In this document: positions 19,701-46,108 of the stretch, piece after piece
Position numbering within the stretch: position 1 is the stretch's first letter
Layout of the letters: every line of letters begins with the position of its first letter
Assembly (NCBI RefSeq): GCF_044790785.1
Contig: NZ_CP085258.1
Location: 2,559,689-2,623,688, forward strand
Source of the DNA: Thalassospira australica
Lineage (GTDB): Bacteria > Pseudomonadota > Alphaproteobacteria > Rhodospirillales > Thalassospiraceae
Length of the DNA stretch: 64,000 nt
Direction of reading: 5' to 3'
Translations under genes and position numbers: made by a program
Notes under the pieces: generated by a model
Told to the model about the DNA's origin: nothing
What the model saw: the letters and a program-made list of their open reading frames with translations, nothing else
The model's database searches: none

Positions 19701-22700
19701 GGGCAGGCCGACTTCACCTTCTTTGATGCCGACAGCCACAAACTGCTCCTGACCATACGCGGCATTCGTTTCTCGGGGGATAGTAACGGCAAAGCAGAAT
19801 CCGCCATGCCGGAACTGCTCGAAATTGACTGGCTGCCGGGCACGGTTGAAATGCAACCGGTTCCCGAAAACACCCTGATGATTGTCGATGGCGATTTCTG
19901 GCCGGTCCCGCCTGCCTGCCTGCGTATCCATCCCGATGCCCTTGCCACCACCGGCAAGGATATGCTGGCAACGGCGCAAAACGTCATTCTGGCCTTGGAA
20001 CCGGGCGAAGACATCGCCCTTCGCACCGCCCGATGCCTACGTTCTATCCTGCGCACCATGCGCGGGCGGATGCGGTTTGTCGTTGCCGGATGCGGCGCCT
20101 ATCAGATCAATGGCGATACCATTCCCACCAACCCGGATCAAAGTGCAGCAGCCGGTGTTGCCATCGCCGCAAGCGCCGAAGAACCCCGCCTGGTCCTCTC
20201 CTTTGCCGATATCGCACCGGATGATTTCCTTGCTTATATCGGTACTGAGCTGGCAACCGAACCGGGCCACGATCCGGTTGCGGCTTATCGCAATCAGGTC
20301 CGCTATTGTCGCAAACTCCGCCCGGTTTCCGCGCATGACAATCTGGCAAAAACCAACTGGCCCGATCATGGCGTCTGTGTCGTAACTGGCGGTACCGGCG
20401 GCTTTGCCATGGCCCTTGCCGATGAAATGGCGATGGGCGGCAAAGTGGCTCTTGCCCTGCTTGCCCGTCGCGGTGAAGACGGCCTTGATGCAACAACAAG
20501 GACACAGCTTGCACACCTTCGCGCAACCGGCATCAAGGTATCAATCCACACCTGCGACGTTGCCGACAAAGACGCGCTTTCCGATACGCTTGCCACGATC
20601 CGAAATAGTCTCGGCCCGATCACGGCCATTGCCCATGCCGCCGGGCTTGCCGATGGCGGGTTCCTTGCCGTCCGCGACATGGATGCGTTCGACACCATCA
20701 TGGCCGCCAAGATCAACGGCGCCCGTCATCTTGACACCCTGACCCTTAACGACCCCGTGCAGGCCTTTGTCATGTTCGGCAGCCTGACGGCCATCGTCGG
20801 TGTGCCCGGTCAGGCCGCCTATAGTGCGGCCAACGCCTTCCTTGACGGTTTTGCCCGTTACCGCAGGTCGCAGGGCCGCCCGGCCCTGACCATCGACTGG
20901 TGCGCTCTTGCCGATCAGGGCATGGCCGCACGTCACAATGTTCCGCTTCAGGACGGGGCCGCCATTACCCCGCAACAGGCCCCGGTCTTCTGGCGCGACG
21001 CGATGCACAGCACGGCCGCACAGCTTGTCGTGCTTGATCCCGCCCTTGCTGGTGAAACAGCGGCACAACCGGTAAAACCCGTTTCCGCACCGGCATCTGC
21101 ATCTCCATCGACACCGGATATCCCGCAAAAGATCGCCACCATCTGGGCTGAAACACTCGGCTATGATGCCATCGCCCCGGATGATGATTTCTTTGCCCTT
21201 GGCGGGGATTCCATCACCGGCATGCAGATCGTGGATCGCATGAATGCCGAACTGAAATTGTCGCTGGCGATTTCGGACCTGTTTGCCGCACCGACGGTAT
21301 CCGACCTTGCAGCACAATTCGGCCCATCACCGGCGGGCGATGTCAACCTGCCGGAACCATCCAGGTATCATGAGGCGATATCGACGGGCCCGGTCAATCC
21401 CACGGATAAAATCGCAAAAATCTGGGCCGAAATCCTTGGCTATGACAACATCGACCCGGACGAGGATTTCTATGCCCTTGGCGGCGATTCCATAACCGGC
21501 ATGCAGATCGTGGATCGCATGAATGCCGAACTGGCCTGCAATATCGGTCTTGCCGACCTGTTTGAAACCCCGACGATCACGGCACTGGCCACAAAGATAT
21601 CGCCATCAGTTGAAACTGTGAAACCATCGCCCGTTTCCCTGTCTCCGGCACCAAAACCGGCACAGCCCAAGGTCAAGCTCGAGGTTGAGGTTGAAACCGA
21701 TCCGCGCCGCGCGCCGGAAATGGAATTCTATCCGCTGGCCCCCGAACAGGTTTCGGTTCTGCATGCCGAACAAAGCGGCAATCTGGGCACCGCCTTTAAC
21801 CTGCCCCATGCCTTCATGCTTGACGACAGTGTCGATCTTGATCGCTTGCGTGATGCCATCATCCGCCTGACGGAACGTCATGAAATCCTGCGCACCCGCT
21901 TGATCGCCAAGGGTGATGACTGGGTCATGAAAATTCTGCCACTTCATGACGCCCTGCCCGATCTGACGCTGATCGAACTTGATGCTTCCGTATCGCTTGA
22001 AGATGCCGGTGTGTACCTTGTCATGCCGTTCGATCTGGCAACGGAAATTCCCGCGCGCTGGCGTCTGCTATGTGCTGCCGACGGCCAAAAGGCATTGTTC
22101 TTTGATATCCATCATACGGTTTCCGATGGCTTTACCATTGAAATGCTGCTGTCGGAATTGCTGGCGATTTATCGTGGGCAGCCCCTGCCACCCGTCCCCT
22201 ATCAGTTGCGCGATTACGCCTGGTGGAGCCATCTACCCGAAAGCCGCAAGCGGCTTGAAACCGCGCGTGATTACTGGCTCTCCCTGTATCAGGGACCACT
22301 TCCGAGGCTCGACCTGCCATCGGATCGCAAACGTCCGGCTTTCCATAGCTTCACAGGGGAAATCGTCGCGTTTGATCTTGATCCGGCGGTGCTGAAATCG
22401 GCCCGCAAATTCGCATCCGATCAACGTGTGACCATGTTCTCGCTGATGATGGCAACATGGTTTGCCGTCCTTGGCCGGATCGCCGCCACCGACGATCTGG
22501 TCATCAGCGTCCCGGTCAACCAGCGCGATGGTGCTGGCTTCCGCGATGCGCCGGGCATGATGGTTTCACTTCTGCCACTCCGCATGCAGATTGCCGATGA
22601 TGAAACCTTTGCATCTCTTCTGCACAAGGTGCAAAACCATCATATTGATGCCCTCCGCCACCGGGCCTATTTCCTGGATCTTCTACTGGATGATCTCTCA

Positions 22701-25700
22701 CCACCGGCCGAACCCGAACGCACCCTGCTGTCCGAAGTTTCTCTATCCTATATGAACTATGCACAGGGCGATTACGGACCGGACGAACAAGCCAAATCCA
22801 TGCGCCCCATTGGGCTTGGCCGGCAGCAATGCAAAAACGATCTGGCGATCTTTGTGCGCGACCTTCCCGAAAGAATGGTCATCTCGTTCGACTATTATGT
22901 CGATATGTTTGATCGCGCCCGCATGGTCGAACTCGGTCACATCTTTACGACAACCCTGAAAAAACTGGTTGCCACGGACGCCAACGCAAACACCGCACCG
23001 ATTGCCTCCCTGGATCTTCTGCCCGATGATCAGAAAGCAAATATCGAAATCTGGGAACAGGGTCCGCAACCGGAAACCAGCCTTGATGCGGATGCGAATG
23101 CCGGGATCTTTGCGATATTCGCCAATCAGGCCTCCGTCACCCCCGATGCCCCTGCCATCCGCGATACCAATGGCACATGGACCTTTGGGGAACTGCATGC
23201 CAAGGCGCGCGCCATTGCCAATTGCCTGCAAACCGCCGGGATCGAACCGGGCGATCTGGTTGCAATGCATATTGAACGTGGTCGTCCGGCCATTGCCGCA
23301 ATTCTCGCGATTACCGCCATCGGCGCGGGATATGTCCCGCTTGATCCGGCCTATCCGGTGGCACGCAATCAATTCATCCTTGCCGACAGCGGGGCCAAAC
23401 TGGTTCTGGTTGATAACGCCGGGCATGACGCCCTTGGCTCCCTGTCCGAAACCGGCGATCCATCCCCGCAACGGATCAATATTGTGGGCATTGCCCCGGC
23501 ACCAGCCGATTTCACCCTTCCCGAACTGACCAACCCGGACAGTTTTCCTGCCTATATCATGTATACCTCCGGCTCGACCGGAACGCCCAAGGGGGTTCTG
23601 ATCGAACAGGGTGCAGTACGCCGGCTGGCATTGGGCGCGGATTACGCCAAAATCGTTGCCTCTGATGTGGTGGCACAGGCAGGCCCACTGGCATTTGATG
23701 CCTCGACCTTTGAAATATGGGCGACCTTGCTGCGTGGTGCGGAAATCGCCGTGATTGACCGCGATGACCTGCTTGATCCGGCCAAACTCGGCGATGCCCT
23801 GTCGCAATCGGGTGTTACGAAAATGTTCATGAGCGTCGGCCTGTTCAACCGTCAGGTCGATCATGATCCCCGCACCCTTGCCGGGCTTGATATCCTGATG
23901 GTCGGCGGGGACGCGATCAGCAAACAGCATGTCCGCACCTTTATCGCCGCCTGCCCGCACGTCACGGTTCTGAACGGTTATGGCCCGACCGAAAGCACGA
24001 CCTTTGCCGTTGTCGGCCCGATCACCGAAAATGATCTGTCGGGCGATACCGATGCCACCATCATCGGCAAACCCATCCCCTGTACCAAAACGCTGATCCT
24101 TGATCAGAACGGTCAACGCACCCCGGTTGGCGTCTGGGGCGAATTGATGATTGGCGGGTCACGTCTGGCGCGCGAATACTGGCAACGTCCCGACCTGACC
24201 TGCGAACGGTTCATCCCCGATCCCGATCAGCCCGGCGAACGGCTCTATCGCACCGGCGACCTGACCCGATGGACCCGCGAGGGCCGAATCGAATTTGGCG
24301 GCCGTCATGACAATCAGATCAAACTGCGCGGTTTCCGTATTGAACTGGATGAAATCGAACAACAGCTTCAATCCACACCCGACATCAAAAATGCGGTTGC
24401 CCTGTTTGACTCGATCGCCCCTGATGGTGGGGCGATCATCGGCTGTATTCAGACGACACAGAATCAGGATATCGATTTCCCTGCCCTGATGACGTGGCTT
24501 GGCCAACATCTGCCCGGCTACATGATCCCGGCGAAATGGCATATCGTCGATGCCATCCCGATCACCGCCAATGGCAAGGTCGACCGAAAGGCCCTGCTCG
24601 AAACGGTGCGCACGCAATCGAGCGCGCTGGCCCTTGACGGCAACACCGATACCCCGCCCGCCAACGCCGCCGAAAAACTGGTTGCCGATATCTTTACCGA
24701 GGTTTTCGCAACCCCCATCCGTAACCGGCACGCAAGCTTCACCCAGCTTGGCGGTCACAGTCTGATGGCAATCCGGATCGTAAACCGCATTGCGGATCGG
24801 ACCGGCAAACGCATCAGCATGGCCGACTTCTTTGCCGATCCGACGGTCGCGGGGCTTGCCCGCCATATCGACAATGCCACCATTGATATCGCCGCAACCG
24901 GCAATGGCCAAATCCCGCCCGCACCGGAAATGGAACATTACCCGGCCAGCCACGCGCAAAAACGGCTTTATCTGCTCTCAAAGATGGACGGCAACAGCGG
25001 TGCCTATGGGATGCTTTATGTCTTCCGCTGCACCGGTGATTTGCGTGCCGATATCCTGCAATCCGCCCTGACCCGGCTGGTCGACCGTCATGAAACATTG
25101 CGCACGGGCTTTGCCGAACAGGACGGCACGATCACGCAGAAAATCCATGCCACCACCCCGCCCGCCGTCGCGTTTGACGATCTTTCCGGTCATGCCGATC
25201 CGGCCCGCGAAGCCCTTCGTCTGACCCGGCTTGAGGCGGCAACACCGATCATCCTCGATCAGCCGCCGCTGATCCGCGGGCGCGTCATCCGGGTGGCGGC
25301 CAATGAAAGCCTGATGATCCTGATGACCCATCATATCGTCGGCGATGGCTGGTCTTCGCGCATCCTGATCAACGAACTTGGCGCGCTTTATGATGCCGTC
25401 CTTCATCAGCGGAACGATGCCCTGCCGCAACTTCCGATCACATACAAGGATTTCGCCCATTGGCAATCCCGACAGGATTGGGCCGATGCTGCCGATTACT
25501 GGCGTCAACAGCTTGCCAATGCCCCGGAACAGATCAATCTGCCAACGGATCGCCCTGTACCGGAAAAACAATCCTTCCGCGGCGCGCATGTGCATCTTGC
25601 CCTGCCTGATGACGTCCTGTCCGGCCTGCACCAGCTCGCCAGCCGGAACAAAACAACCCTGTCATCGGTTGGCCTGTCGCTGTTTTCCGCCATGCTCTAT

Positions 25701-26252
25701 CGCCTGACGCGCCAACCTGACATGGTTATCGGCATGGGCGTTGCCGGGCGTGAACGTATCGAGACCGAGGGCCTGATCGGCTTCTTTGTCAATGTCCTGC
25801 CGATCCGCATGCAGCTTGACGACGACACCGATCTTGGCGACCTGATCCGTACCACCCATATCAATATTGGCAATGCGCTGGACCGGCAGGATTTCCCGTT
25901 TGATGAACTGGTCCGGGCCGTCGCACCAAAACGCAAATCCAACCGTCAGCCGCTGGTTAATGTGGTGTTCGAATATCAACGCTTCGAAGCCGTAACCAAT
26001 ATGACGCAATCCGGTCTGCCGCTGCTGGCTCCCGATGCCGACGGCATCCTGCCATCCAATATGGATGCCTTTGTCGATAACACGACGGCCAAACATGACA
26101 TCATTCTGTTCCTGACCGAAGAAGCCGGTCAGGCACGCTTCACCCTTGAATATGACACCGATCTGTTCGATGCGGAAACCATGCAGCGCTGGTTGGCCTT
26201 CCTTGGCAAATTTGCCGCTGCCGCCGCACAAAATGCCCAAAGGGATGCATAA
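10728..26252 (+). CDS. hybrid NRPS-PKS, modules 3-7: docking-C-A-T-C-A-T-KS-DH(like)-KR-ACP-ACP-C-A-T-C
   Basis: 5174 aa. TubC-N-like docking N-terminus (LLDKLRQRDIALSLHANGHDLCFDAP). C domains IDHLCFDGQS (~11331; first His replaced by Asp), HHAICDGWS (~14431), HHTVSDGFT (~22111), HHIVGDGWS (~25330). Three A domains with TSGSTG(A/R/T)PKGV cores (~12710, ~15838, ~23565). PCPs LGGHSL / VGGNSL / LGGHSL. KS DTACSSSL (~17750), EAHGTGTSLGDP, GNYGHLDGAAG, followed by a KS-AT-type linker but no AT (no GHSxG). DH-like region with degenerate HxxxGxxxxP (HHLNGQPTLVGMAVP). KR GGTGGFAMA plus YSAANAFLD. Two tandem carrier domains DDDFFALGGDSITGMQIVDRMNAEL. Ends in a C domain. ATG at 10728 with GGGAG SD; stop overlaps the gene 3 ATG. 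Confidence 0.9.
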   Translation: MNTDQLFRRTQTARTLLDKLRQRDIALSLHANGHDLCFDAPTGAFDDALKSETRDLKAEIIGLLRAPSEPDTKGSSAGPILKSFPAHPAIEGQWIARRDQPTSANYHIVTGFSLPEGTGFSAVRDAIATIVKRHDALRSTFVEQDGQLIQRVHAYMPVSVRKIETTREIRHDLFDLATGPLARFGYVGHDDGQVPQLAMAIDHLCFDGQSVMLLQKELLAILAGNPPGNIPDIEKLVRNAHYNLDRERGEIARKFWSSRTDKLLSVGLPDDPATDSNGDGKRFLIELTGQDAEAVAKLASHTRKTTQTTLWAALTIAVIARHKENATAIIGLPFAGRRDRETMQSMGCFVNLLPVAIKPDMTGTLENLTRQVGHEVLSILDVQDYPLSRLVHDLTQAAQGPIGQPFDAVHVMETSDSPFVIEDLDFGAGKFPLMIGMMKNGAETFLAVEYQSNIYGNAWAERFAKRFLTFARALAKNPDMPLGLVDLLPEDERDHLSITLNDTASDYPHDCGLGELLARQIAKPANADKVALQDRDRKITYRMLGQRVAAISAGLDALDVAPGSIVALAADRSLDAIITLLGIAWHGAAYLPIDKSLPGDAIATLMAECGAGILLCDDAEFERLSGLSGRVRIARLPDTNATSDATFTRRSGDDLAYVMFTSGSTGAPKGVLIPNRAVARLVVNNRALAFDDTDVMAQAASLGFDAATLEIWAPLLNGGRLVLIDNETLFDPESLHNALKDGGVTTMWLTASLFNRIADDAPGCFAPLKRLLSGGEVLSPAHLQKVMAACPDLALINGYGPTENTTFTCIHPITAQDVQSANIPIGRPIGNTRTYILDTGGQPVPTGVWGELYAAGDGLALGYSGAPERTAKAFVTFDHLPETRLYKTGDRARWRADGVIEFGGRGDGQVKIRGHRIETAAIEKRLAEIDGIRNACVIAADSGADAFLGAAIAADQDNSTIWMQVLGRNLPDYMIPERFLVLDHLPVNVNGKVDRKQLLHALTDTAPLVPQTGNAATGNELEQIVTEQFRALFGNRDITPSSDFFALGGHSLVAMRLAGLLEKSTGIRPKLQDIFVARTVGGIATLLANHKQNGKQFRIPKADGPKFPLSSGQARLWVLQRMQPDMAVYSVPAAFEINGPIDADALQAALHKLEERQHALRLRFKSDPHHPDGVSQYLAPAGSWVLGRHQMDEGPARLFIARETVRPFDLENKPLARADLITLAPKRHWMLVSLHHAICDGWSMPTLLRDLAALYAAETGATAASLPLLDRHYEDFASWQHGYLNSTGGKDLLARWKERLLPLPEPLALPSDRRRPKVRRFAGDFNEIAFGEQTTRLINDAADRHGTTAFSILTALVQILMYRQCGQTDIPLGMLVAGREQTALDDVVGFFVNTVVLRQNVDPNAGFDDHLAQTGKTIIDALSDQAAPFEDVVAAVNAPRDPARNPLFDVLVAWQDSIPNLGKLGDAELSLLKTEFPFSKFDLAFYFSKQNDALLCQIEFDTDLFDKSTIQAIFNRLEILAVAALSTSSSAKIAELPILPANERTRIDQFNATDLDLVIERSISEPFIDQVRATPDAPAVIGTSATLSYEQFARRAAGIAAKLRAASVGPGDVIGVAVRRSVDMLAAIHGILLCGAAYSPLDPDHPEQRRTDMLDDLGYPRVVTTADLADLFDANNVLIIDGHEDADIPDAINAPDDLAYVLFTSGSTGRPKGVEIAHRGVLNRILWMQDAFPIGPDDVILQKTPITFDVSVWELFWWSWTGARIVLPDPGVERDPQQLAQAIRDHGVTTMHFVPSMLASFLFSVEHGLVDIEHLGSLKRVFASGEALDPALVKRFNDLLFDRFGTELHNLYGPTEATVDVTWHACSPLENPDIVPIGKPIANTTIRILDDKLGDMPIGIAGEIVLGGPQIALGYRNRPELTTEKFPDDPRNPGHKLYRTGDLGRFLADGSVEYLGRIDHQVKIRGFRIECGEVETTIESHDLVERALVKAVRVGGLDELHAFVLGDDALTLGILRDHLRTRLPEYMIPARFFALDHLPLTSSGKVDRKALSGTPMAGSPKTASRRSKPAIAARSDADNPDLENLERVLQRLWQEILPGVIAGRDDGFFDVGGNSLLLLRLHEKINARWPGTISIADLFASPTIARQAELLAGLDIATDDPEPAKGAPLATNEPIAVIGIGLQLAGADDIDTFWADVARGADRVRPLPPERDHETRDMMAAIGRSVPARFREAAYLDHIFDFDPGRFRMAPADAALIDPEQRLFIETALMAMENAGYGGQALRGQKVGIFAGGGANPAWRIAMEHVARDKAEQIFALNVPSNMVTRLSFLKDWRGPASIVDTACSSSLVAVHQACQNLRSGTCTVALAGGAKLIPCPPDADGGFTIDSSTARTRAFDDAADGTGMGEGSVVFVLKPLGNAIADGDPVHAIIRGSAVNQDGASSGAAAPNPAMQADVIRQAAQTADIELGSLSYIEAHGTGTSLGDPIEIDGLTRAFAQSTDENGFALIGSAKGNYGHLDGAAGALGLARAIMALRFDQAPPQPFFETPNSRIDFARAPVRPTNRLEPLADRGAPRRAGVSSFGLSGINAHVILEAAPKRSANAPYDIAQNGTFILALSAANEAALTDYAAKLHRDIANDTTLDVRDICHTLATGRDQLRHRFAVSVSDRQSLLHALAGLIAGDTANCAAPKPAAFSVPAVSGDPADATANARQWLEGANLIWPEDMRARRVSLPHAPFAKIVCKPVFGDTRAPDNTIMTGPVETERGRCFAIPVASPSFWPTNEHHLNGQPTLVGMAVPAMIATAARNGMGDPSVHISDLKWQKTLLPNALPDGTATLLLGNDGHVELGGRLKNGKWSVFATAHWTNDAPANSHRDNLPSLDHVRAKCTLAANIPPYAPQIGPITISDRWDCRTSMHYSADETTAIMHLKLKPQYHADLRDWIIHPAMADIACSMILTAEDNGSLPVGIDEIILHAPFSGDIIVCADRRHPGQADFTFFDADSHKLLLTIRGIRFSGDSNGKAESAMPELLEIDWLPGTVEMQPVPENTLMIVDGDFWPVPPACLRIHPDALATTGKDMLATAQNVILALEPGEDIALRTARCLRSILRTMRGRMRFVVAGCGAYQINGDTIPTNPDQSAAAGVAIAASAEEPRLVLSFADIAPDDFLAYIGTELATEPGHDPVAAYRNQVRYCRKLRPVSAHDNLAKTNWPDHGVCVVTGGTGGFAMALADEMAMGGKVALALLARRGEDGLDATTRTQLAHLRATGIKVSIHTCDVADKDALSDTLATIRNSLGPITAIAHAAGLADGGFLAVRDMDAFDTIMAAKINGARHLDTLTLNDPVQAFVMFGSLTAIVGVPGQAAYSAANAFLDGFARYRRSQGRPALTIDWCALADQGMAARHNVPLQDGAAITPQQAPVFWRDAMHSTAAQLVVLDPALAGETAAQPVKPVSAPASASPSTPDIPQKIATIWAETLGYDAIAPDDDFFALGGDSITGMQIVDRMNAELKLSLAISDLFAAPTVSDLAAQFGPSPAGDVNLPEPSRYHEAISTGPVNPTDKIAKIWAEILGYDNIDPDEDFYALGGDSITGMQIVDRMNAELACNIGLADLFETPTITALATKISPSVETVKPSPVSLSPAPKPAQPKVKLEVEVETDPRRAPEMEFYPLAPEQVSVLHAEQSGNLGTAFNLPHAFMLDDSVDLDRLRDAIIRLTERHEILRTRLIAKGDDWVMKILPLHDALPDLTLIELDASVSLEDAGVYLVMPFDLATEIPARWRLLCAADGQKALFFDIHHTVSDGFTIEMLLSELLAIYRGQPLPPVPYQLRDYAWWSHLPESRKRLETARDYWLSLYQGPLPRLDLPSDRKRPAFHSFTGEIVAFDLDPAVLKSARKFASDQRVTMFSLMMATWFAVLGRIAATDDLVISVPVNQRDGAGFRDAPGMMVSLLPLRMQIADDETFASLLHKVQNHHIDALRHRAYFLDLLLDDLSPPAEPERTLLSEVSLSYMNYAQGDYGPDEQAKSMRPIGLGRQQCKNDLAIFVRDLPERMVISFDYYVDMFDRARMVELGHIFTTTLKKLVATDANANTAPIASLDLLPDDQKANIEIWEQGPQPETSLDADANAGIFAIFANQASVTPDAPAIRDTNGTWTFGELHAKARAIANCLQTAGIEPGDLVAMHIERGRPAIAAILAITAIGAGYVPLDPAYPVARNQFILADSGAKLVLVDNAGHDALGSLSETGDPSPQRINIVGIAPAPADFTLPELTNPDSFPAYIMYTSGSTGTPKGVLIEQGAVRRLALGADYAKIVASDVVAQAGPLAFDASTFEIWATLLRGAEIAVIDRDDLLDPAKLGDALSQSGVTKMFMSVGLFNRQVDHDPRTLAGLDILMVGGDAISKQHVRTFIAACPHVTVLNGYGPTESTTFAVVGPITENDLSGDTDATIIGKPIPCTKTLILDQNGQRTPVGVWGELMIGGSRLAREYWQRPDLTCERFIPDPDQPGERLYRTGDLTRWTREGRIEFGGRHDNQIKLRGFRIELDEIEQQLQSTPDIKNAVALFDSIAPDGGAIIGCIQTTQNQDIDFPALMTWLGQHLPGYMIPAKWHIVDAIPITANGKVDRKALLETVRTQSSALALDGNTDTPPANAAEKLVADIFTEVFATPIRNRHASFTQLGGHSLMAIRIVNRIADRTGKRISMADFFADPTVAGLARHIDNATIDIAATGNGQIPPAPEMEHYPASHAQKRLYLLSKMDGNSGAYGMLYVFRCTGDLRADILQSALTRLVDRHETLRTGFAEQDGTITQKIHATTPPAVAFDDLSGHADPAREALRLTRLEAATPIILDQPPLIRGRVIRVAANESLMILMTHHIVGDGWSSRILINELGALYDAVLHQRNDALPQLPITYKDFAHWQSRQDWADAADYWRQQLANAPEQINLPTDRPVPEKQSFRGAHVHLALPDDVLSGLHQLASRNKTTLSSVGLSLFSAMLYRLTRQPDMVIGMGVAGRERIETEGLIGFFVNVLPIRMQLDDDTDLGDLIRTTHINIGNALDRQDFPFDELVRAVAPKRKSNRQPLVNVVFEYQRFEAVTNMTQSGLPLLAPDADGILPSNMDAFVDNTTAKHDIILFLTEEAGQARFTLEYDTDLFDAETMQRWLAFLGKFAAAAAQNAQRDA
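21195..21533 (+). repeat. intragenic tandem duplication encoding two near-identical carrier (ACP/PCP) domains
   Basis: A 60-nt block gcccttggcgg(g/c)gattccat(c/a)accggcatgcagatcgtggatcgcatgaatgccgaactg occurs at 21195-21254 and again at 21474-21533 (2 mismatches, 279 nt apart). The flanks are about 80 percent identical. Confidence 0.85.
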
Positions 26253-29200
26253 TGAAAATCGCCGATTTCGATTTTGAAACTCTCGACACACCACCCGGGG
26301 CAGACAACCAACCCGATTCCCGACCATCGGCAACAACCGGCAGCATCGTGACCCGGTTTGCAACGATTGCCGCGTCGCATCCCAATCGCATTGCAACCCG
26401 CGATGAAACCGGCGAAATCAGCTATGCCGAACTGGACCGCCAAAGCAATCGTATCGCGCATTTCATTACCGGGCTTGCCCTGCCCGCCGGATCGCTTGTC
26501 GGCGTGATGACCGGGCGCAACCGCCATTACATCACCGCAACCCTTGGCGTCCTTAAGGCCGGTTTTGCCTTTGTGCCGCTTGATCCGAATGTACCGCTGA
26601 TCCGCCGCACCACACTGGTCCGCAATGCAGCACTACCGCTGATCATTTCCGAAGGCCCCCATATCGGCGACCTGCACCAGTTGCAGTGGCGCTGCAAAAC
26701 CGTCACCGACATTCTGTGTCTTGACCATGACGATATTGATATCCTGACGGAAAATCCCGGTTCCCTGATGTCGGTTGAACTGTGGGATCATCTGGCCGGC
26801 GATGATGCCGACAACATTCTGGCGGGTGGCTGGAAAAGTGCCTTTACCGGGCAGCCGATTGCGCAAAGTGCGATGGATGCCTTTGGCGCAAATGCGCGCA
26901 ACAAGGTCGCCGGTCTGGTATCACGCGATGCCCGCGTACTTGAAATCGGCTGCGCATCCGGTTTCACCATGAAGCATGTCGCCCCCGTCGTCAGCACCTA
27001 TGTCGCGACCGATCTGTCGCGTCGCAACGTCGAACGGACCGAGGCCCTGGCGATCAATCTTGGCATGACCCATGTTATCGGTCGGCAGCTTGGCGCGCAT
27101 GATATCGATGTTTATGAACCGGGCTCGTTCGACCTGATCATCATGAACAGCGTCATCGAAAACTTCCCCGGCTACGGTTATCTGCGCACGGTCCTGGCAA
27201 AGGCAAAAACCCTGTTGGCACCGGGTGGAGCGATTTATCTTGGCAATGTCTGGGATGCGGATCGTCGCGATGATTACCTTGCCGATCTGGCGCAGTTTGC
27301 CCGTGACACGGTGGGCAAGGGATACAATACCCGACTTGATTTCCTCGAAGACCTGTTTGTCCCCCAGTGCTTCCTTGAAGACTGGGCACGCGAACAGGGC
27401 GGCTTTGCCGCCAACCGATCCGCAATCGATGCCGACGGGTTCGATCCCGCCCCCTACACATTCGATTTCGTCCTGACAACGGATGCTGCCAAACAGCCTG
27501 CCCCGCCGCAAAAGCGCCGCCACGATCTGGCCGCACTGACCAACGATGCGCACACCGCAACCGAAACCAATGCAAACGATCTTGCCTATGTCCTGTTCAC
27601 CAGCGGTACCACCGGCACGCCAAAGGGGGTGATGATCGAACATGGCTCGGTTGTAAATCTGGCCCAGTCGGTTCTCGATACGCAGTTAAAACAGATCGGT
27701 GCCGATGCTCCCGACCGCGCCCTTAACCTGACCTGTGTCGCGCCCTTTGCCTTTGACGGCTCCATCGTTCAGATTTTCGCGGCCATCCTGAACGGGCATT
27801 GCCTGAACATCACCGGATCGGCCACGCGAAGCGACCCGGAAGCCCTGCATCACCTGATGGTCGCCAACGCAATTGATCAGCTTGACGCAACGCCAAGCCT
27901 GTTTTCCCTGCTCCTTGACTACTGGGAAGAAAACCGGCTTTCCTGCCCGGCTAGGATGGTGGTTCTGGGCGGTGAAACGGTTTCCGCCCGACTGGTCGAA
28001 CGTTTCTTTGCCCTGCCCGGCCAGACCGACCGCAAACTGGTCAATGCCTATGGCCCGACGGAATGCTGCGTTTCATCGGCCCAGTATGTGATGACCGCGC
28101 ACAACCATAAACAGATTCTGCCGCCCCCAATTGGCAAGGCCATTCAGGGCGTGCATGTGGAAATCTGCGATGATATGGGCCGCCCCTTGCCCGATGGTGT
28201 TCCGGGCGAAATCCGCATCGGCGGTGCCGGTGTCGCGCGCGGCTATCTGAACGACCCGGCCCTGACCGCGCACAAATTTGTCACCGATCACAACGGCAAC
28301 CGGTTCTATCGCAGCGGCGATATGGGCCGGCGGCGCAATGATGGCGAAATCGTTTTTCTTGGGCGCGAAGACGGCCAGATCAAGGTGCGCGGCAACCGGA
28401 TCGAACTGGGCGAAGTCGAACATGCCCTGCTTGCCCATCCCCATATCCGCCGTGCCGCCGTGGTCGCCCATGACCGTCATCAGAACGGCAATGTTGTTCT
28501 GGTCGGTTATGTCGTGACCGATGACAATGCCCATGCCGATTTCGATATCGCGGCGTGTAGGGCAAAACTTGAACAGGCCCTGCCGAACTATATGGTGCCC
28601 AACCATCTGATCACGATGGATGACCTTCCGCTGACCGTGAATGGCAAAATCGATCTTTCACGCCTTCCCATCCCCGAAAACACCGATCAGGCCACAAGCA
28701 CCACCGCAAAGCCGCTTGGCAGCGACCATGAACGCACCGTTGCCCGCCTGATGGGCGAGGTCCTTGATTGCACCGTCGATGACGCCACCGCCGATTTCTT
28801 TGAACTCGGCGGTCACAGCGTCCTTGCGGTTCAGTTCCTGTCAAAAATCAACAAGGTTACCGACGTCAAAATCCCGCTGGGCGATCTGTTTACCTGTGCC
28901 TCGGTCGAAAAGCTCGCCGCGCGCATTTCCGAACGCGAAAACGAAAGCGACGCCAAAAGCCCGATTGTCACCGTCAATGCAGCGGGTACCAAACCACCGA
29001 TGATCTGCTTCCATCCGGTCGGCGGCAATGTGCTGTGCTATCAAAACCTTGCCCGTGAATTCGGCCCCGATCAGCCGCTTTACATGGTCGAAGCCCAAGG
29101 CCTCGAAGAAGGCCAGAATTTGCAGCCAACGGTCGAGGAAATGGTGGCCGCATACATGCCTGCCATCCGCCACACCGTTCCCGACGGCCCGATCCATGTC

Positions 29201-29767
29201 ATCGGCTGGAGCTTCGGCGGATTGCTGGCCTTCGAGGCCGCCTTCCGCATGCAGCAGGCAGGGATCGATGTGCGCAATATCATCCTGCTTGATGCGATTG
29301 CCGTGCCCGATGCGGTCCGCGCCATCCTGCGCAAGGGCGAGGCCGAATATCTTGCCGATATCTTTGCCGAACTCGGCCTTGTCACGGTTGACGAATTGCG
29401 TCCGCTCACCCCCGAAGAACGCATCGACCTGTTGCTGGAACGCGGCAAAAACTGCGACCTTCTGCCTGACGAGGCAGATCGCGGCACCATGCGCCGCCTG
29501 CTTGCAGTATTCCAGAATAACGCACTGGCCGCCGTACATTATGTCCCGCCGAAAATTGACGGGATTGATGTCCTGCTGCTGCGCCCGACAACCGAAACCC
29601 GCGCCGCACCCAGCATCGAAGGCGATCAATATAGCGGCTGGCAAAGGGTCGCGGGTGATGCCCTGACCCTTGAATGGGTTGGCGGCACCCACGGATCAAT
29701 GATGTTCGATCCCCATGTGATCGAAGTTGCCGAACGCATCCGCCGTCATCTTGAAAAATCGAAATGA
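26252..29767 (+). CDS. NRPS termination module: A domain interrupted by a SAM-dependent methyltransferase (between cores A2 and A3), then T and TE
   Basis: A1/A2 cores (LKAGFAFVPLDP). Class I MT motif LEIGCASGF plus DLIIMNSVIENF (~26940-27200). A3 LAYVLFTSGTTGTPKGV (~27600), NAYGPTE, GEIRIGGAGVARGY, YRSGDMGRR, GQIKVRGNRIELGEVE, NGKIDLSRL. PCP FFELGGHSVLAVQF (~28805). TE GWSFGG (~29205). ATG at 26252 with AAGGGA SD, overlapping the gene 2 stop. Confidence 0.9.
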   Translation: MKIADFDFETLDTPPGADNQPDSRPSATTGSIVTRFATIAASHPNRIATRDETGEISYAELDRQSNRIAHFITGLALPAGSLVGVMTGRNRHYITATLGVLKAGFAFVPLDPNVPLIRRTTLVRNAALPLIISEGPHIGDLHQLQWRCKTVTDILCLDHDDIDILTENPGSLMSVELWDHLAGDDADNILAGGWKSAFTGQPIAQSAMDAFGANARNKVAGLVSRDARVLEIGCASGFTMKHVAPVVSTYVATDLSRRNVERTEALAINLGMTHVIGRQLGAHDIDVYEPGSFDLIIMNSVIENFPGYGYLRTVLAKAKTLLAPGGAIYLGNVWDADRRDDYLADLAQFARDTVGKGYNTRLDFLEDLFVPQCFLEDWAREQGGFAANRSAIDADGFDPAPYTFDFVLTTDAAKQPAPPQKRRHDLAALTNDAHTATETNANDLAYVLFTSGTTGTPKGVMIEHGSVVNLAQSVLDTQLKQIGADAPDRALNLTCVAPFAFDGSIVQIFAAILNGHCLNITGSATRSDPEALHHLMVANAIDQLDATPSLFSLLLDYWEENRLSCPARMVVLGGETVSARLVERFFALPGQTDRKLVNAYGPTECCVSSAQYVMTAHNHKQILPPPIGKAIQGVHVEICDDMGRPLPDGVPGEIRIGGAGVARGYLNDPALTAHKFVTDHNGNRFYRSGDMGRRRNDGEIVFLGREDGQIKVRGNRIELGEVEHALLAHPHIRRAAVVAHDRHQNGNVVLVGYVVTDDNAHADFDIAACRAKLEQALPNYMVPNHLITMDDLPLTVNGKIDLSRLPIPENTDQATSTTAKPLGSDHERTVARLMGEVLDCTVDDATADFFELGGHSVLAVQFLSKINKVTDVKIPLGDLFTCASVEKLAARISERENESDAKSPIVTVNAAGTKPPMICFHPVGGNVLCYQNLAREFGPDQPLYMVEAQGLEEGQNLQPTVEEMVAAYMPAIRHTVPDGPIHVIGWSFGGLLAFEAAFRMQQAGIDVRNIILLDAIAVPDAVRAILRKGEAEYLADIFAELGLVTVDELRPLTPEERIDLLLERGKNCDLLPDEADRGTMRRLLAVFQNNALAAVHYVPPKIDGIDVLLLRPTTETRAAPSIEGDQYSGWQRVAGDALTLEWVGGTHGSMMFDPHVIEVAERIRRHLEKSK

Positions 29768-29779: not shown

Positions 29780-30541
29780 TCAGGCCCAGGACAGGCTTGC
29801 CGGATCGAACTCCGTTTGATCCGGCAGTGTCAGGCCAAGCCACCCCTGCACACCCGGCCAGATGATCGTGCGATACTGGCCAAAATTGGCATACCGCACC
29901 TCAAAACCAAGGCCCTTGCGCTCAATCGATGACGGCGCATAAAGCTCAAGCGGCGTCATCATCCCCGTGGTGATGGTCTTGGCAAGGCTTTCGCGCGCCA
30001 CCCAAAGCAGGCAAGCGACCCCATGATCGTCAAGATCAATGCTCCTGAACATCTTCCGCACATCGGGCGCAATTCCGTCCAGAATCGCGGGCACATCCTT
30101 CATCGTCGGCAGGTCGACATCAATCCCCAATGGATGGGCACGATGAAACACAAGGGCAACCGCAAACCGATCCGAATGCGACAGCGAAACCGACATGCCC
30201 TGAACATCGTCCCCGCCGCCAGCAATAATCGGCTGATCAAAAACCCCCGATCCGATTTCAATCGATTGCGGATCGATCCCCGGAAAATACGCCTTCAATG
30301 CCGCCTTCGCCGCCAGTCGCCCGCAGATAAAACTTTTACGGCGACGATCATGCCGGAAACTTGCCAGTCGACTCTTTTCCGCCGGATGTAACTGGTTTTC
30401 TGCCAGTTTGTTGCACCCGGCATCATCCAGCCCCTCCAGATCAAGAACCGCCAACACCGCGTGCAGGATATCGGATGGTGCATATGTTCCAGTGCCTTTC
30501 GGGCGCTGGAACATAAGGCTATGGGTTGTGATCGGGGACAT
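29780..30541 (-). CDS. Sfp/EntD-type 4'-phosphopantetheinyl transferase
   Basis: PPTase motifs FICGRLAAKAALKA, SLSHSDRFAVALVF, LGIDVD and WVARESLAKT. ATG at rc 30539-30541 (MSPITT) with AGAAGG SD; the longer ORF to 30592 is probably an over-extension. Its stop lies 12 bp from the convergent NRPS gene 3 stop. Confidence 0.7.
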   Translation of the reverse strand: MSPITTHSLMFQRPKGTGTYAPSDILHAVLAVLDLEGLDDAGCNKLAENQLHPAEKSRLASFRHDRRRKSFICGRLAAKAALKAYFPGIDPQSIEIGSGVFDQPIIAGGGDDVQGMSVSLSHSDRFAVALVFHRAHPLGIDVDLPTMKDVPAILDGIAPDVRKMFRSIDLDDHGVACLLWVARESLAKTITTGMMTPLELYAPSSIERKGLGFEVRYANFGQYRTIIWPGVQGWLGLTLPDQTEFDPASLSWA

Positions 30542-30641
30542 CCGGGTGGCCTTCTGTGCGTCATCAAAAACAGATAAAAAAAGAATGCCCAAAGCACGCT
30601 TTGGGCATTCTCGAAATACGGTCTGAAAACCCGATGATCAA

Positions 30642-31202
30642 TCAGGCTTTGGCGGTCGTTGCACCCGCTGCCGGTTTGGCCGTGGTTTTGCCGCCTTTGA
30701 CAAATTCGGACGCCTTGCGTTTGCCGTCTTCGAATTCGTCCTTGAAACGACCCTTCATTTCATCGGCGTCGAAATCCTCAACCGTTCCGCCCTTGGCAAA
30801 GTGCCACGCGAAAACACGACCCAGCGCATAGGTGCAGGCACCGGCAAAGGTCGGCATGGCGACAACACCAAAGATCGTGCCAACAACCGGAACCTTGCGC
30901 ACCAGCGCCGCCGTTGCATAACCGACACCGGTCATCGGCAGAACCGTTGCAACCAGGGTCGAAATCGAACTCTTGATCGCATTCTCAGAGAACGGAACAC
31001 CATAAATGTCACAAAGCTTTGCAAGCATCCGCACCTGGATGGTGCTGCTGGTGGCCATTTCAAGGAACGGGATCGGGACAAGACCACCAACCGCAGCATA
31101 AACGCTATGACGATGGATGCAGTCACGGGACTGGGCACGAATTTCATCCGCTTTCGCGACGGCCAGTTCTTCAGTCTCTTCGATGGTTTCTGCTTCGCTC
31201 AT
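30642..31202 (-). CDS. DUF697 (YcjF-like) membrane protein, paralog A
   Basis: Core GGLVPIPFLEMATSSTIQVRMLAKLCDIYGVPFS matches the YcjF DUF697 signature (PLPLLDML...IGDIYGIELG). ATG MSEAETIEE at rc 31200-31202 with AGAGG SD. Confidence 0.6.
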   Translation of the reverse strand: MSEAETIEETEELAVAKADEIRAQSRDCIHRHSVYAAVGGLVPIPFLEMATSSTIQVRMLAKLCDIYGVPFSENAIKSSISTLVATVLPMTGVGYATAALVRKVPVVGTIFGVVAMPTFAGACTYALGRVFAWHFAKGGTVEDFDADEMKGRFKDEFEDGKRKASEFVKGGKTTAKPAAGATTAKA

Positions 31203-31303
31203 TATCGCCTCTTGAATTTCTACCTGTAAGTTGATGATCTGCACGCAAAACTTATTCTTCAACTTTACCTGAACTAACCGAAAGTAGCAATGTGTAACAC
31301 CCT

Positions 31304-32698
31304 TTATTTGCTACCGGTTTTTGAAATTTCAGGCTGCCCCGCACTCTCATGTGTCGCGGTCGGTTCCATGTCGCTCTGTTTTACAATACCGTCCCCGTCT
31401 CCGCCGGACCGGTCAAACGACGAGGCGACCGATTTCAAAACATCTTCTGCCGTCTTGCCCGAAGACGAAGCGCCCTCCGCCCCGCCTTCTGTCGGGGCCG
31501 CCGGCTTCATCAGGGGCGTAATCGGAAGCGGGTCAGAATTTGCCGGTGCGTTCCTGTTTGCCCCGGCCGGTCGTTGGCGTTTGCCCGCCGGATCGACCGG
31601 TTCGCGGATCCCGGGCGAAATCGCATTTTGCGGTGCCACTTCCTGCGAACGCGCATTCACCGCCCCCGCATTCGGCAGGCTTTCCTCGGTATCGTTCACA
31701 AGCTCCGCACCAGAATCTGAATCCGGGCTGCTGGCCGTCGGTGCATCCGCAGTATTAAGGATCACGGGCAGGCCGTCCTTGCCGCCAATGATGATCGTCT
31801 TGCTGTTTTTCGATGTCGCAAGCGTCATGGTGGCTTCGATACCGCGCAGGCGCAGATATTCCTCGGTAATCGTTTTGGCAACGATATCCTGAAATTCACG
31901 AATACCTTCCGCCTCGATTTTCTTGCGCTGCTTTTCCTTTTCCTCACGCGCAAGACGGAAATCATATTCCAGCATCGCCTGATATTGTTCGGCCTTGCGT
32001 TCAATGGCATCCGCAACGCGTTCCGGCAGAATAACTGACCGGATCAGAACATCCTCAACCGTTACCAGCCGCCCCTGAAAACTCTGATTAACCAGCGACG
32101 ACCCCAGCTCGTTGACCATGCGTTCAAGAATTTCGGCCTGAATGAAGGCACGGGTTTCGGTATAAAGCTGTTCGGGGGTATAGCGCGAAATCAATTCACG
32201 CGCGTGCGATCCGATTTCCGGATAGACAAGGATTTCCGCATAATTCGGCCCGACCAGCTTGTGCAGCATCCCGACCGCTTCGCGATTGATCCGATAACGC
32301 ACCGCGATATCGACTTCCATCGACAGACCGTTTGATGAAATGGTGTCGTAAACCCGCGCCTGATTTTGCAGACGCGCGTCATAGACATACATTTCATCCC
32401 ACGGGAAGATCATGTGAATGCCTTCACCGTAACTTTGATCAACCACCGTCCCGCCAAAGAACCGGTACCACATCACCGCAACATGCCCGGCAGGCACGGT
32501 AATGAAAATCTGCGGTGCCAACGCGAAAATCGCGATCAGCAAAAACAGAATCCCGATCAGAAATGCCGTGCGCAAACGCCGCAGGCGTTCCCCTGCGCTG
32601 ATGAAAAAGCGCCGCCAAAAGATCGACCACCGCCCTCTTTTGCGGGCAGTTGCGTTTTCGTCTGGTGCTCCGGGTGCGACTGTCGCGCTATCAACCAT
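31304..32698 (-). CDS. SPFH/band-7 (prohibitin/HflC-like) membrane protein with long disordered C-terminal tail
   Basis: N-terminal TM (LIGILFLLIAIFALAP), then SPFH core (VPAGHVAVMWYRFFGG...SMEVDIAVRYRI) and a coiled-coil (EEKEKQRKKIEAEGIRE). This is followed by about 170 aa of A/P/S/G/D-rich low-complexity sequence. Confidence 0.75.
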   Translation of the reverse strand: MVDSATVAPGAPDENATARKRGRWSIFWRRFFISAGERLRRLRTAFLIGILFLLIAIFALAPQIFITVPAGHVAVMWYRFFGGTVVDQSYGEGIHMIFPWDEMYVYDARLQNQARVYDTISSNGLSMEVDIAVRYRINREAVGMLHKLVGPNYAEILVYPEIGSHARELISRYTPEQLYTETRAFIQAEILERMVNELGSSLVNQSFQGRLVTVEDVLIRSVILPERVADAIERKAEQYQAMLEYDFRLAREEKEKQRKKIEAEGIREFQDIVAKTITEEYLRLRGIEATMTLATSKNSKTIIIGGKDGLPVILNTADAPTASSPDSDSGAELVNDTEESLPNAGAVNARSQEVAPQNAISPGIREPVDPAGKRQRPAGANRNAPANSDPLPITPLMKPAAPTEGGAEGASSSGKTAEDVLKSVASSFDRSGGDGDGIVKQSDMEPTATHESAGQPEISKTGSK

Positions 32699-32756
32699 TC
32701 ATCATCTCGTCGTCGGGTGTATCATGGCGCATGCTGATCGCCCCTCAGCCATCATC

Positions 32757-32954
32757 TTATTCATAGTCAAGGTCTTTAAGCTTTTCACGAAGCTCCCGCG
32801 ACGGGCGCGCGACGATCTGAACCAGAAAATCACCAATCGGGGTAATGACAATCGCCAGCAGGAAATGGCCCAGAAACCCGAACGACGTTTTGCGCCCAAG
32901 CATGCCGCAAACAATGCAGGCCAGCAGATAAATTACAATCAAAATCAAATGCAT
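32757..32954 (-). CDS. small hydrophobic membrane protein (65 aa), hypothetical
   Basis: Two predicted TM helices (ILIVIYLLACIVCGMLG; FLGHFLLAIVITPIG). Co-directional, located between the SPFH gene and DUF697 paralog B. Coding status is uncertain. Confidence 0.35.
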   Translation of the reverse strand: MHLILIVIYLLACIVCGMLGRKTSFGFLGHFLLAIVITPIGDFLVQIVARPSRELREKLKDLDYE

Positions 32955-32998
32955 CGTTTCGCCACCCGAATTCCTGTTATTGCGCGATTACGCATTCT

Positions 32999-33505
32999 TT
33001 ACGCCGTTTTTCCGTCCCGTTCGAATTTCAGGCCATCCTTGAATTTCTGACGAAACTCGGCCTCCGCCTTTTTGGCATCAAAGTTCGTTAATGTGCCGCC
33101 CGCGGCATAATGCTGCTGGAAAACCCGGCCAAGCGCATAGGTAAATGCCGCATTGAAACCCGGCATCGTCACAATGCTCAGTGTCGATCCGACAATCGGC
33201 ATCACCTTGGCAAGGTTGGAAAATATCCCGGTTCCCAAAAGAGCCCGCCCCAAAACACCACTGGTAATGCACGCCGTTAAGGCCGCAATCACCGATTTGC
33301 CGCTGCTTTTGTTGAATTCGACGCCATAAACATCGCTCAGTTCCGCCAGCATTTTAAGCTGCACGGCAACCGTCGCCGCAGAATCGACAACAGGGATCGG
33401 AACAAAGCCGGTCGTGGCGGCCCATAGTGTATTGCGTTGCACAACACCACTTGCAAGCCGGTGCTGTTTGCGCCGCTTCAGCACTTCAAGCGTTTCAGCC
33501 CCCAT
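32999..33505 (-). CDS. DUF697 (YcjF-like) membrane protein, paralog B
   Basis: TGFVPIPVVDSAATVAVQLKMLAELSDVYGVEF... is a clear paralog of the 30642-31202 product. ATG MGAETLEV at rc 33503-33505 with GGGGGA SD. Confidence 0.6.
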   Translation of the reverse strand: MGAETLEVLKRRKQHRLASGVVQRNTLWAATTGFVPIPVVDSAATVAVQLKMLAELSDVYGVEFNKSSGKSVIAALTACITSGVLGRALLGTGIFSNLAKVMPIVGSTLSIVTMPGFNAAFTYALGRVFQQHYAAGGTLTNFDAKKAEAEFRQKFKDGLKFERDGKTA

Positions 33506-33700
33506 AACGTCCCCCGGTTTATTGTCCCGTGCCAAATCATAATCGCTAACTATCAGCACTGCAAACCGAATCAAGGTTTTATACAGCCTTGACCCAACTC
33601 CCGATGCAATCAACCATATGGTTTGTGAAAGCCGGTTTCTGAGGATATAACCGGCTTAACAGGATCATGATTTGAAAATATATGTCGCCGGAGACACGTT

Positions 33701-34483
33701 TTGAAGCTGTCTACCAAGATCGGGCTGGCCCTTTTTCTTGTGCTTGCAAGCGCACTGAGCATGACCACGGTCCTGAACTATCTGCGATTCGACCAGACGC
33801 TGCACACTCTTCTGTCACAGCGCATGACCGTGATCCTCAATGAAACCAGTCAGGATATCCTTGCGGGGATCGATCTGGGTTTGCGGCTGGAAAACATGGA
33901 AAATCTGCAATCAATCCTGAACCGGCGTCTGGATATGTCCAACGATATCCGCAATGTCGCCGTTCTGGACTGCGACGGCACGATCATCAGCAACGCCGCC
34001 CGGTCCGCTGATGACAAGGTCGGCTCCGGGGCCGCGATATCGCAACAGCCCCGTGATCAGTGGATCGATTTCGCACCGGGCATCGCCACCGCCGGGCAGG
34101 TTCTGCGCGACAGCCTTGGCCAATGCACCGGTCAGGTCGTCATCACCGCAAGCGCCCAGGCCTCCGAAGCCAAACTTGCCAATGCCCTATCTGAAATGTG
34201 GAAATCCGCCGCCCTTGGCATGGGCATGATCGTTCCCATCCTTGGCGTCCTGTTCATTCTGATGCGTCGTCGTCATCGCGTTTTCGAAGAACTGCACGAA
34301 GATCTGGCACGCGCGGTCGCGGGCGAAGCCCCCAATATCCGCCCCCATGACGGCGATGTCCTGACCGAAAGCGAAATCGAACTGATCGCCCTTTACCGTG
34401 AAATTCGCGATCAGTTACCTCATGACTCTGACAAAGACAGCACCGCTCGCGTATCAAAAACCCCGGCGGAGACAAAAAAATGA
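33701..34483 (+). CDS. membrane protein with TM-periplasmic domain-TM-cytoplasmic tail (sensor-like), hypothetical
   Basis: TTG start with GGAGA SD. N-terminal TM (IGLALFLVLASALSM), about 150 aa extracytoplasmic segment, second TM (MGMIVPILGVLFILM), acidic cytoplasmic tail. Its extracytoplasmic segment is a paralog of the N-terminus of the downstream MFS fusion. The stop overlaps the next start (ATGA). Confidence 0.5.
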   Translation: MKLSTKIGLALFLVLASALSMTTVLNYLRFDQTLHTLLSQRMTVILNETSQDILAGIDLGLRLENMENLQSILNRRLDMSNDIRNVAVLDCDGTIISNAARSADDKVGSGAAISQQPRDQWIDFAPGIATAGQVLRDSLGQCTGQVVITASAQASEAKLANALSEMWKSAALGMGMIVPILGVLFILMRRRHRVFEELHEDLARAVAGEAPNIRPHDGDVLTESEIELIALYREIRDQLPHDSDKDSTARVSKTPAETKK

Positions 34484-42561: not shown

Positions 42562-42563
42562 TC

Positions 42564-44982: not shown

Positions 44983-45040
44983 GTTTCTTTCCGTCCCCAA
45001 TTGCCGACTGCTTTACCTGTCGCAATATTATCGCGCAATT

Positions 45041-45583: not shown

Positions 45584-45706
45584 ATACCCGGCAAGTTTTG
45601 GTTGTGCGGTTGGCGGTAAGTTCATTAAACCTGATATACCTTGCCCGGTTCGGGCAGATGATCCTTGTCGATTACAGAAATAATATCAACAAAAGGCAGG
45701 TTGGAT

Positions 45707-46108
45707 ATGCGCAGTTTGAAATTTGCAGTCGTCGGTTTGCTGGCACTTGTTGTTGCCGCATGCCGCACCGCCCCGGTTCAGAATGTCACGAGTCAGCCCT
45801 TCCCGGCTGATGCGGCAAAGCTCAGCATGGCACAGATCGAAGAAAGCATCATCAAGGCCGCCGGTGAACGCGAATGGATTGTTCAGCGTAAAGCCGACGG
45901 CGAACTGATCGCGACCTATTCCCCGCGTGACCACCTTGCCAAGGTCGAAATCGATTTCGATCAGTCCGAATTTTCGATTTCCTATGTCGACAGCACCAAC
46001 CTGAATTATGATGGGACTTCGATCCATTACAATTACAATCGCTGGGTCAACAATCTGCGACAGGATATCTTGCGCGAGGTATCGGCAAAGGCCGCCCTCG
46101 CCAACTAG
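45707..46108 (+). CDS. lipoprotein, hypothetical
   Basis: Signal peptide with lipobox LVVAAC (MRSLKFAVVGLLALVVAAC). Confidence 0.5.
   Translation: MRSLKFAVVGLLALVVAACRTAPVQNVTSQPFPADAAKLSMAQIEESIIKAAGEREWIVQRKADGELIATYSPRDHLAKVEIDFDQSEFSISYVDSTNLNYDGTSIHYNYNRWVNNLRQDILREVSAKAALAN

Follow-up and report, generated by a model that had tools for sequence, protein, structure and literature searches.

A methyltransferase-interrupted adenylation domain in a probable thalassospiramide locus of Thalassospira australica

Introduction

Which atom is methylated by a methyltransferase that is embedded in an adenylation domain, and in the assembly of which product? The question is raised by an open reading frame (ORF) at 26252-29767 of a 64,000-nucleotide stretch of Thalassospira australica DNA (contig NZ_CP085258.1, positions 2,559,689 to 2,623,688), hereafter called the window. 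In this ORF the adenylation (A) domain of a nonribosomal peptide synthetase (NRPS) is interrupted by a class I methyltransferase (MT, or M domain) dependent on S-adenosylmethionine (SAM). The initial annotation, made from the letters of the sequence, placed the insertion between the second and third A-domain cores (a2 and a3) of a terminal module, described this arrangement as rare and compared it with TioN of the thiocoraline system. It predicted methylation of the product's last residue, and held that N-, O- and S-methylation could not be told apart by eye. The analysis reported here assigns the insert to the backbone N-methyltransferases and the ORF to the cluster for the thalassospiramides, which are calpain inhibitors. 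The protein family, the insertion point, the N-methylation chemistry and the product have all been published already. The value of the result is one of annotation, that the window very probably carries a thalassospiramide cluster with a predicted terminal N-methyl-tyrosine, and it has little weight as a discovery.

The methyltransferase lies between cores a2 and a3

The ORF (forward strand) encodes 1171 amino acids from an ATG start, in the order N-terminal part of the A domain, methyltransferase, remainder of the A domain, thiolation (T, carrier) domain and thioesterase (TE). Pfam placed AMP-binding in two stretches, the best of which is C-terminal (amino acids 424-666, profile positions 151-384), and between these stretches lie matches to five class I methyltransferase models (Methyltransf_12, 23, 11, 25 and 31) at residues 223-345. 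Downstream, AMP-binding_C (721-799), PP-binding (829-892) and Thioesterase (916-1164) were recognized. Core a2 occupies residues 101-111 and core a3, LAYVLFTSGTTGTPKG, residues 444-459; of the later cores, a5 is found at residue 598, a7 at residue 686 and a8 (GREDGQIKVRG) at residues 704-714. No insertion is present at the a8-a9 site, where a8 runs straight into the A-sub and T domains. The methyltransferase therefore sits where it had been proposed to sit, with a2 on one side and a3 on the other, in the terminating module's A domain. All peptides quoted in the initial annotation were located in the ORF at the expected positions, the Pfam boundaries that it had called for split AMP-binding by methyltransferase models, and a methyltransferase placed after a8 was not seen.

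Uninterrupted A-domain structures (for example LgrA and GrsA) align with the protein at residues 34-138 and resume at residue 439, leaving a gap between. Global pairwise alignment had fragmented this gap, and the size of the insertion was derived instead from the spacing of motifs. In the ORF a2 and a3 lie 349 residues apart, versus 72-84 residues for the window's four uninterrupted A domains, which gives a net insertion of 265-277 residues. For the insert itself NCBIfam provided no specific model, only weak generic methyltransferase matches under the cut-off.

The insert has the features of a type V N-methyltransferase

Interrupted A domains have been sorted into seven families (Lundy, Mori and Garneau-Tsodikova 2020, PMC8341866). 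In family 3, represented by TioN, the a2-a3 insert is an S-methyltransferase of type IV. Family 4 (A2-Mb-A3), which was defined on the thalassospiramide enzyme TtbB that N-methylates L-Tyr, carries at the same site a type V backbone N-methyltransferase of 270 +/- 6 amino acids (PMC8341866). The type IV and type V inserts are closely related, and Asn versus Ala at the NSV position separates the N-methylating inserts (types I and V) from the S-methylating ones (type IV) (PMC8341866).

Type V motifs i, ii, iii and iv were all matched by the insert (Table 1). The motifs of types II, III, IV and VI gave no matches in it, all three TioN-type ms(S,a2-a3) motifs being absent. At the diagnostic position the insert has Asn299, in an NSV motif within the peptide DLIIMNSVIENF (residues 294-305), where the type IV counterpart reads AS[T/V/A]. 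Neither the SAM-binding loop nor the D294/N299 motif is disrupted, and the acidic residue that follows strand 2 (D254) is kept, in line with the SAM-binding motifs that had been noticed in the intervening segment.

A sequence search of the Protein Data Bank (PDB) returned 5WMM, the backbone N-methyltransferase of TioS, as the best match of the insert (E=1e-15) and, beyond generic methyltransferases, as the only related solved structure. An AlphaFold model of the insert alone (predicted local distance difference test, pLDDT, 78.8; predicted template modelling score, pTM, 0.82) also had 5WMM as its top fold match (E=1e-13, TMq 0.68), versus a score of about 0.5 for ordinary small-molecule methyltransferases. 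A solved A domain with an a2-a3 interruption was returned by neither the sequence nor the fold search of the PDB, in which 5WMM, interrupted at a8-a9, was the sole interrupted A domain.

Relatives were collected by an exhaustive HMMER search of the 300-residue insert against 1.84 billion cluster representatives (50%-identity clusters), which gave 5411 matches at E<=1e-3, of which 526 reached E<=1e-30. A word-index search with residues 1-483 was dominated by ordinary A domains and contributed six useful relatives of the a2-a3 kind, under uninformative names. The arrangement was scored in the best 149 of these 526 representatives, which contain 152 inserts at a2-a3, distributed over 139 proteins, and 11 further inserts at a8-a9. 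Asn occupies the diagnostic position in 151 of the a2-a3 inserts and the type IV Ala in one. The median motif spacings are 193 and 163 residues among the related inserts; in TtcC the spacings are 193 and 156. Identity of the window insert is 31-59% (median 37.6%) to a2-a3 inserts of the N-type, 25-32% (median 28%) to a8-a9 inserts and 34% to the type-IV-like insert. A neighbour-joining tree, drawn without bootstrap, joined 152 a2-a3 N-type inserts, that of the window included, in one group, and left the type-IV-like sequence and 12 a8-a9 inserts outside it; a phylogeny of this kind had been proposed as a check.

The insert is called N-methylating because it carries motifs i-iv and Asn in the NSV motif, groups with the N-type inserts and has 5WMM as its closest structure. 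Judged by sequence, it is a type V M domain, its host A domain being a family 4 interrupted A domain on all features that could be tested. The view that the kind of methylation is indistinguishable by eye is not upheld, since for inserts at a2-a3 the Asn-versus-Ala position together with motifs i-iv separates N- from S-methylation without experiment. TioN, a family 3 enzyme with a type IV insert, belongs to the wrong subtype to serve as the comparison. Nor is insertion at a2-a3 rare: 188 family 4 and 64 family 3 sequences were counted in 2020 (PMC8341866), and with the cluster representatives found here the arrangement, present in nearly all of those with the strongest matches, is found widely among sequenced proteins, though it has been studied in few of them.

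The ORF very probably encodes TtcC of a thalassospiramide cluster

The published 'complete' Ttc assembly line consists of TtcA (C-A-T-KS-AT-T), TtcB (C-A-T-C-A-T-KS-(DH)-KR-T-T-C-A-T-C) and TtcC (A-MT-T-TE), with an adjacent phosphopantetheinyl transferase (PPTase), TtcD (10.1101/560987). Its module 4 is of the trans-AT kind and has tandem T domains; the line lacks a KR in module 1b and an AT in module 4 and has a single MT (10.1101/560987). The domain order in the window is that of the published line, down to the absence of KR1b, AT4 and MT5. Pfam at E<=1e-5 did not detect a DH in module 4. The ttcA-, ttcB- and ttcC-like genes are co-directional, with a stop and start that overlap by one base (TAATG) at both junctions (10728 and 26252), and the docking domain of the ttcB-like protein is of the TubC type.

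A scan of one genome per prokaryotic species yielded 18 related loci, all of them in Thalassospira except one, in Fodinicurvata fenggangensis; the highest identity, 93%, was to T. xianhensis and to Thalassospira sp. MCCC 1A03138. The residues mutated in the published work on TtcA (G631 and K972) and TtcB (K2045) are the a3 Gly and a10 Lys residues in the window proteins too, with identical numbering. Ten-residue specificity codes were read off against a GrsA ruler that yields the canonical DAWTIAAICK. The codes of A2 (DALWLGGTFK, Val), A3 (DVWHFSLVDK, Ser) and A5 (DAFFMGGTFK, Val-like) fit a Val-Ser(C2)-Val backbone. That of A1 (4306-7260), DPHMIGCIHK, is non-canonical, and the published substrates at this position are Phe/Tyr. 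Megablast of the gene against plasmids gave zero matches, as expected for a locus on the chromosome. In module 4 the tandem carrier domains (TtcB residues 3480-3600, about 21190-21490) are near-identical around both LGGDSITGMQIVDRMNA motifs (residues 3491 and 3584), and a published CRISPR experiment recombined across this repeat.

Based upon the domain order, the Thalassospira relatives, the coincident residue numbers and the A2, A3 and A5 codes, the cluster is identified as one of the ttc type. The ORF is very probably the ttcC orthologue of a Thalassospira thalassospiramide cluster, encoding the family 4 A(M)-T-TE portion of module 6. The designation 'terminal module' holds insofar as the A(M)-T-TE of the terminating module is present; the ORF has no C domain, however, and C6 is carried by the upstream protein of 5174 amino acids.

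Conservation and predicted function

All 18 orthologues keep the GGWKSAF and NSV motifs. Compared with the window protein, they show 73-93% identity over the insert, where 161 of 300 positions do not vary, and 70-94% over the A core, where 130 of 277 do not. Conservation of the insert at least equals that of the A core, which points to functional constraint.

It was previously reported that deletion of ttcC abolishes production, and that complementation with TtcC-G234D yields desmethyl thalassospiramide A, the analogue that also carries N-Me-Val being lost (10.1101/560987). This outcome indicates that the terminal Tyr and, with lower frequency, the Val of module 5 are both methylated by the single M domain. 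A review table of 2024 lists 'Thalassospiramide, TtcC (A6-Mb-A6), a2,a3, N-methylation' (PMC11355689).

By analogy with the published orthologue, A6 would activate L-tyrosine and load it onto T6, and the embedded type V methyltransferase would use SAM to methylate the alpha-amino group of the T6-bound tyrosine. If the general behaviour of interrupted A domains applies, methylation would take place on the carrier-bound amino acid before condensation. C6, at the end of TtcB, would then join the peptide chain to N-Me-Tyr-S-T6 in a Val-(N-Me)Tyr bond. The TE would esterify the 5-OH of the Ser-derived gamma-amino acid and so close a 12-membered depsipeptide ring, releasing the product. The same M domain would occasionally methylate the valine of module 5, as in the orthologous system. 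The terminal residue of the product is predicted from the orthologue literature to be N-methyl-tyrosine, and the expectation that the last residue is methylated agrees with the N-Me-Tyr shown in published work on TtcC.

The ttcC orthologue of Thalassospira profundimaris S25-3-2 (9905-13030 of its own locus) has a frame of only about 1010-1042 amino acids, covering query residues 1-992, and its thioesterase may be truncated or frameshifted.

Alternative explanations

Several observations weigh against the assignment of the ORF to ttcC and of its insert to type V. The pattern for motif vi, as transcribed from the paper, is unmatched in the insert; only 1 of the 149 related inserts at a2-a3 matches it, and for that reason the pattern is treated as a fault of transcription, which it probably is. 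The published TtcC G234 aligns with G233 here, off by one. The nearest species representatives are 93% identical rather than exact, and a look-up of the exact protein in the gene-position collection gave no match. The A6 code, DGVDVGAVSK, is non-canonical and is not known as a Tyr code; the published substrate is Tyr. An AlphaFold model of the A-M didomain (815 amino acids, 7-row alignment) was poor (pLDDT 57, pTM 0.38), and a fold search with it was uninformative (TM scores <=0.25).

The insert could in principle be a side-chain S- or O-methyltransferase in the manner of TioN and MarQ (family 3, type IV), producing for example O-methyl-Tyr. TioN does share the insertion point, the type IV and type V inserts are close kin, and the one type-IV-like insert sampled has an identity inside the type V range. 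All three type IV motifs are absent, however, the NSV motif has Asn instead of Ala, and the tree places the window insert within the N-type group and the type-IV-like sequence outside. N-Me-Tyr is what the published product structures and the mutant with an inactivated MT show, and according to Lundy et al. an O-methylating insert is not known at a2-a3 (PMC8341866). Side-chain methylation is accordingly considered very improbable. Still less credence is given to the proposal that the insert is an inactive relic and that another enzyme methylates the product, even though relic status was what was first proposed historically for A domains interrupted at a2-a3 (PMC8341866) and the motif on the side of the phosphopantetheine arm, EDLFVPQCF, carries Gln at a position that is Arg or Lys in most relatives. 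This motif otherwise fits the empirical consensus x(E/D)LF(V/I)(S/P)(R/K)x(F/Y). The intact SAM-binding motifs and a conservation across 18 orthologues equal to that of the A core speak against a relic, a second methyltransferase was not found among the ttc genes, and in the orthologue the methyl group is lost when a single residue of the SAM loop is mutated.

The non-canonical A6 code and the 93% identity, with no exact record, could also mean that the cluster is merely ttc-like and directs another lipodepsipeptide, in which case the A(M) unit would load and N-methylate a residue other than tyrosine. Set against this are the identity of the domain order with that of Ttc, the coincidence of the published residue numbers, and the statement of reviews that the thalassospiramide cluster is the single NRPS cluster of Thalassospira strains; this explanation appears hardly any likelier than a relic. 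The thalassospiramide assignment with backbone N-methylation of tyrosine is the reading retained below.

Comparison with known systems

The closest known systems are the terminal A6-Mb-A6-T-TE units of the thalassospiramide synthetases, in TtcC of Thalassospira sp. CNJ-328, TtmB and TtbB (module 6/5). The window shares with TtcC the genus, the three-protein line with its adjacent PPTase, the four-domain protein and the M domain between a2 and a3. It differs in the number of the SAM-loop Gly (233 versus 234), and the strain is probably a different one. In the Tistrella Ttm and Ttb systems the module is fused into a larger protein, whereas the A(M)-T-TE of the window stands alone. Among family 4 domains in general, the insertion site, the size of the insert (265-277 versus 270 +/- 6 amino acids), motifs i-iv and the Asn in NSV are all shared, and a family 4 A(M) often starts a protein or stands alone, as does the window protein. 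Apart from Gln in place of Arg/Lys after ELF(V/I)(S/P), nothing of substance separates the two.

TioN and MarQ have the same insertion point and a related M-domain fold, but the TioN-type motifs are lacking here and the key residue of the SAM site is Asn, not Ala. TioN acts on the side-chain S of Cys as a stand-alone A(M), in contrast to the predicted action of the window insert on the backbone N of Tyr within a protein that includes T and TE. TioS(A4a-M-A4b), the source of 5WMM (family 1, type I), resembles the window insert in its GGWxS, VLEIG and NSV(V/I)(Q/E)xF motifs and in backbone N-methylation; its insert differs in lying at a8-a9 and in being about 120 amino acids longer (390 versus 270). 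TioS depends on an MbtH-like partner, and the whole window, scanned in all six frames, revealed no MbtH-like motif.

Separation of TtcB and TtcC at the C-A linker

The C-A linker (26190-26290) is the exact point at which module 6 is divided over two proteins. The ttcB-like protein ends in AAAAAQNAQRDA ('...QRDA*') and the TtcC-like protein begins 'MKIADFDF', which parallels the fused C3-A3 junction '...STSSSA-KIAELPIL'. A protein that opens with its interrupted A domain is also seen in 29 of the 149 related representatives, mostly with the pattern 'MK(L/I)xD(F/I)', and suggests from these sequences that C|A fission is recurrent in the family interrupted at a2-a3. A more speculative and rather doubtful idea is that the family 4 A(M) is a self-contained cassette, habitually apart from its C domain, and that being apart might enable M to reach the carriers of other modules, as has been reported for TtcC on module 5. 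If it were true, insertion at a2-a3 and C|A fission would be functionally linked, a link not stated in the papers found.

Features of the locus and the remainder of the window

The features of the cluster and of the rest of the window are collected in Table 1.

Table 1. Coordinates of features in the window (aa, amino acids of the ttcC-like protein unless given as a length).
Feature	Position	Strand	Description and basis
ttcA-like gene	4306-10728	+	2140 aa; modules 1a and 1b, C(starter)-A-T-KS-AT-ACP; Pfam
ttcB-like gene	10728-26252	+	5174 aa; modules 2-5 and C6, dock-C-A-T-C-A-T-KS-(no AT)-KR-ACP-ACP-C-A-T-C; Pfam
Condensation domain C6 of last module	24933-26234	+	3' end of ttcB-like gene; Pfam
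ttcC-like gene	26252-29767	+	1171 aa; A6(N part)-M-A6(C part)-T-TE; ATG overlaps upstream TAA stop by 1 nt
Adenylation core, N-terminal piece	26342-26665	+	aa 31-138, cores a1 and a2; motif and structure alignment
Core a2, LKAGFAFVPLD	26552-26584	+	aa 101-111; motif position
Inserted class I SAM-dependent methyltransferase	26666-27565	+	aa 139-438; M domain, assigned to type V / Mb(a2-a3); Pfam, motifs, fold
M motif i, LAGGWKSAF	26819-26845	+	aa 190-198; motif definition PMC8341866
M motif ii, VLEIGCASG	26936-26962	+	aa 229-237, SAM-binding loop; pattern match
M motif iii, TYVATDLS	26996-27019	+	aa 249-256; pattern match
M motif iv, DLIIMNSVIENFPGYGYL	27131-27184	+	aa 294-311, includes Asn299; pattern match
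Adenylation core, remainder	27566-28396	+	aa 439-715, cores a3 to a8; Pfam, motifs, structure alignment
A-sub domain	28397-28681	+	aa 716-810; a10 Lys in NGKID, aa 797-801; Pfam, motif
Thiolation (carrier) domain T6	28736-28927	+	aa 829-892; phosphopantetheine Ser in LGGHSV, aa 852-857; Pfam, motif
Thioesterase domain	28997-29743	+	aa 916-1164; GWSFG at aa 985-989; Pfam, motif
4'-phosphopantetheinyl transferase (ttcD-like)	29780-30592	-	directly downstream, opposite strand; Pfam
Major facilitator superfamily (MFS) transporter	34480-36498		downstream of DUF697 genes
Pyridoxal phosphate (PLP)-dependent enzyme	39705-40787		downstream of DUF697 genes
Two ABC ATPase fusion proteins	40912-44237		downstream of DUF697 genes
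Type II thioesterase	44242-45000	-	second locus
Ketoacyl-synt_2	46111-46860		second locus
Acyltransferase	46853-47680		second locus
AMP-binding domain fused to ApeI/FabA-like dehydratase	48746-50434		second locus
GT2 and lipid-A acyltransferase	50335-52119		second locus
Aromatic amino-acid ammonia-lyase	52013-53674		second locus
773-aa ORF	54710-57031		second locus; no Pfam match
Flavin adenine dinucleotide (FAD) halogenase/monooxygenase-like enzyme	57031-58269		second locus
DUF3261	58251-58916		second locus
KS	58913-60142		second locus
SDR/KR	60624-61349		second locus
Second KS	61286-62590		second locus

Directly downstream of the PPTase, on the reverse strand, two DUF697 genes flank an SPFH/Band-7 gene (30642-33613). 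A second biosynthetic locus, unrelated to ttc, extends over 44242-62590 and resembles the aryl-polyene or xanthomonadin type in gene content.

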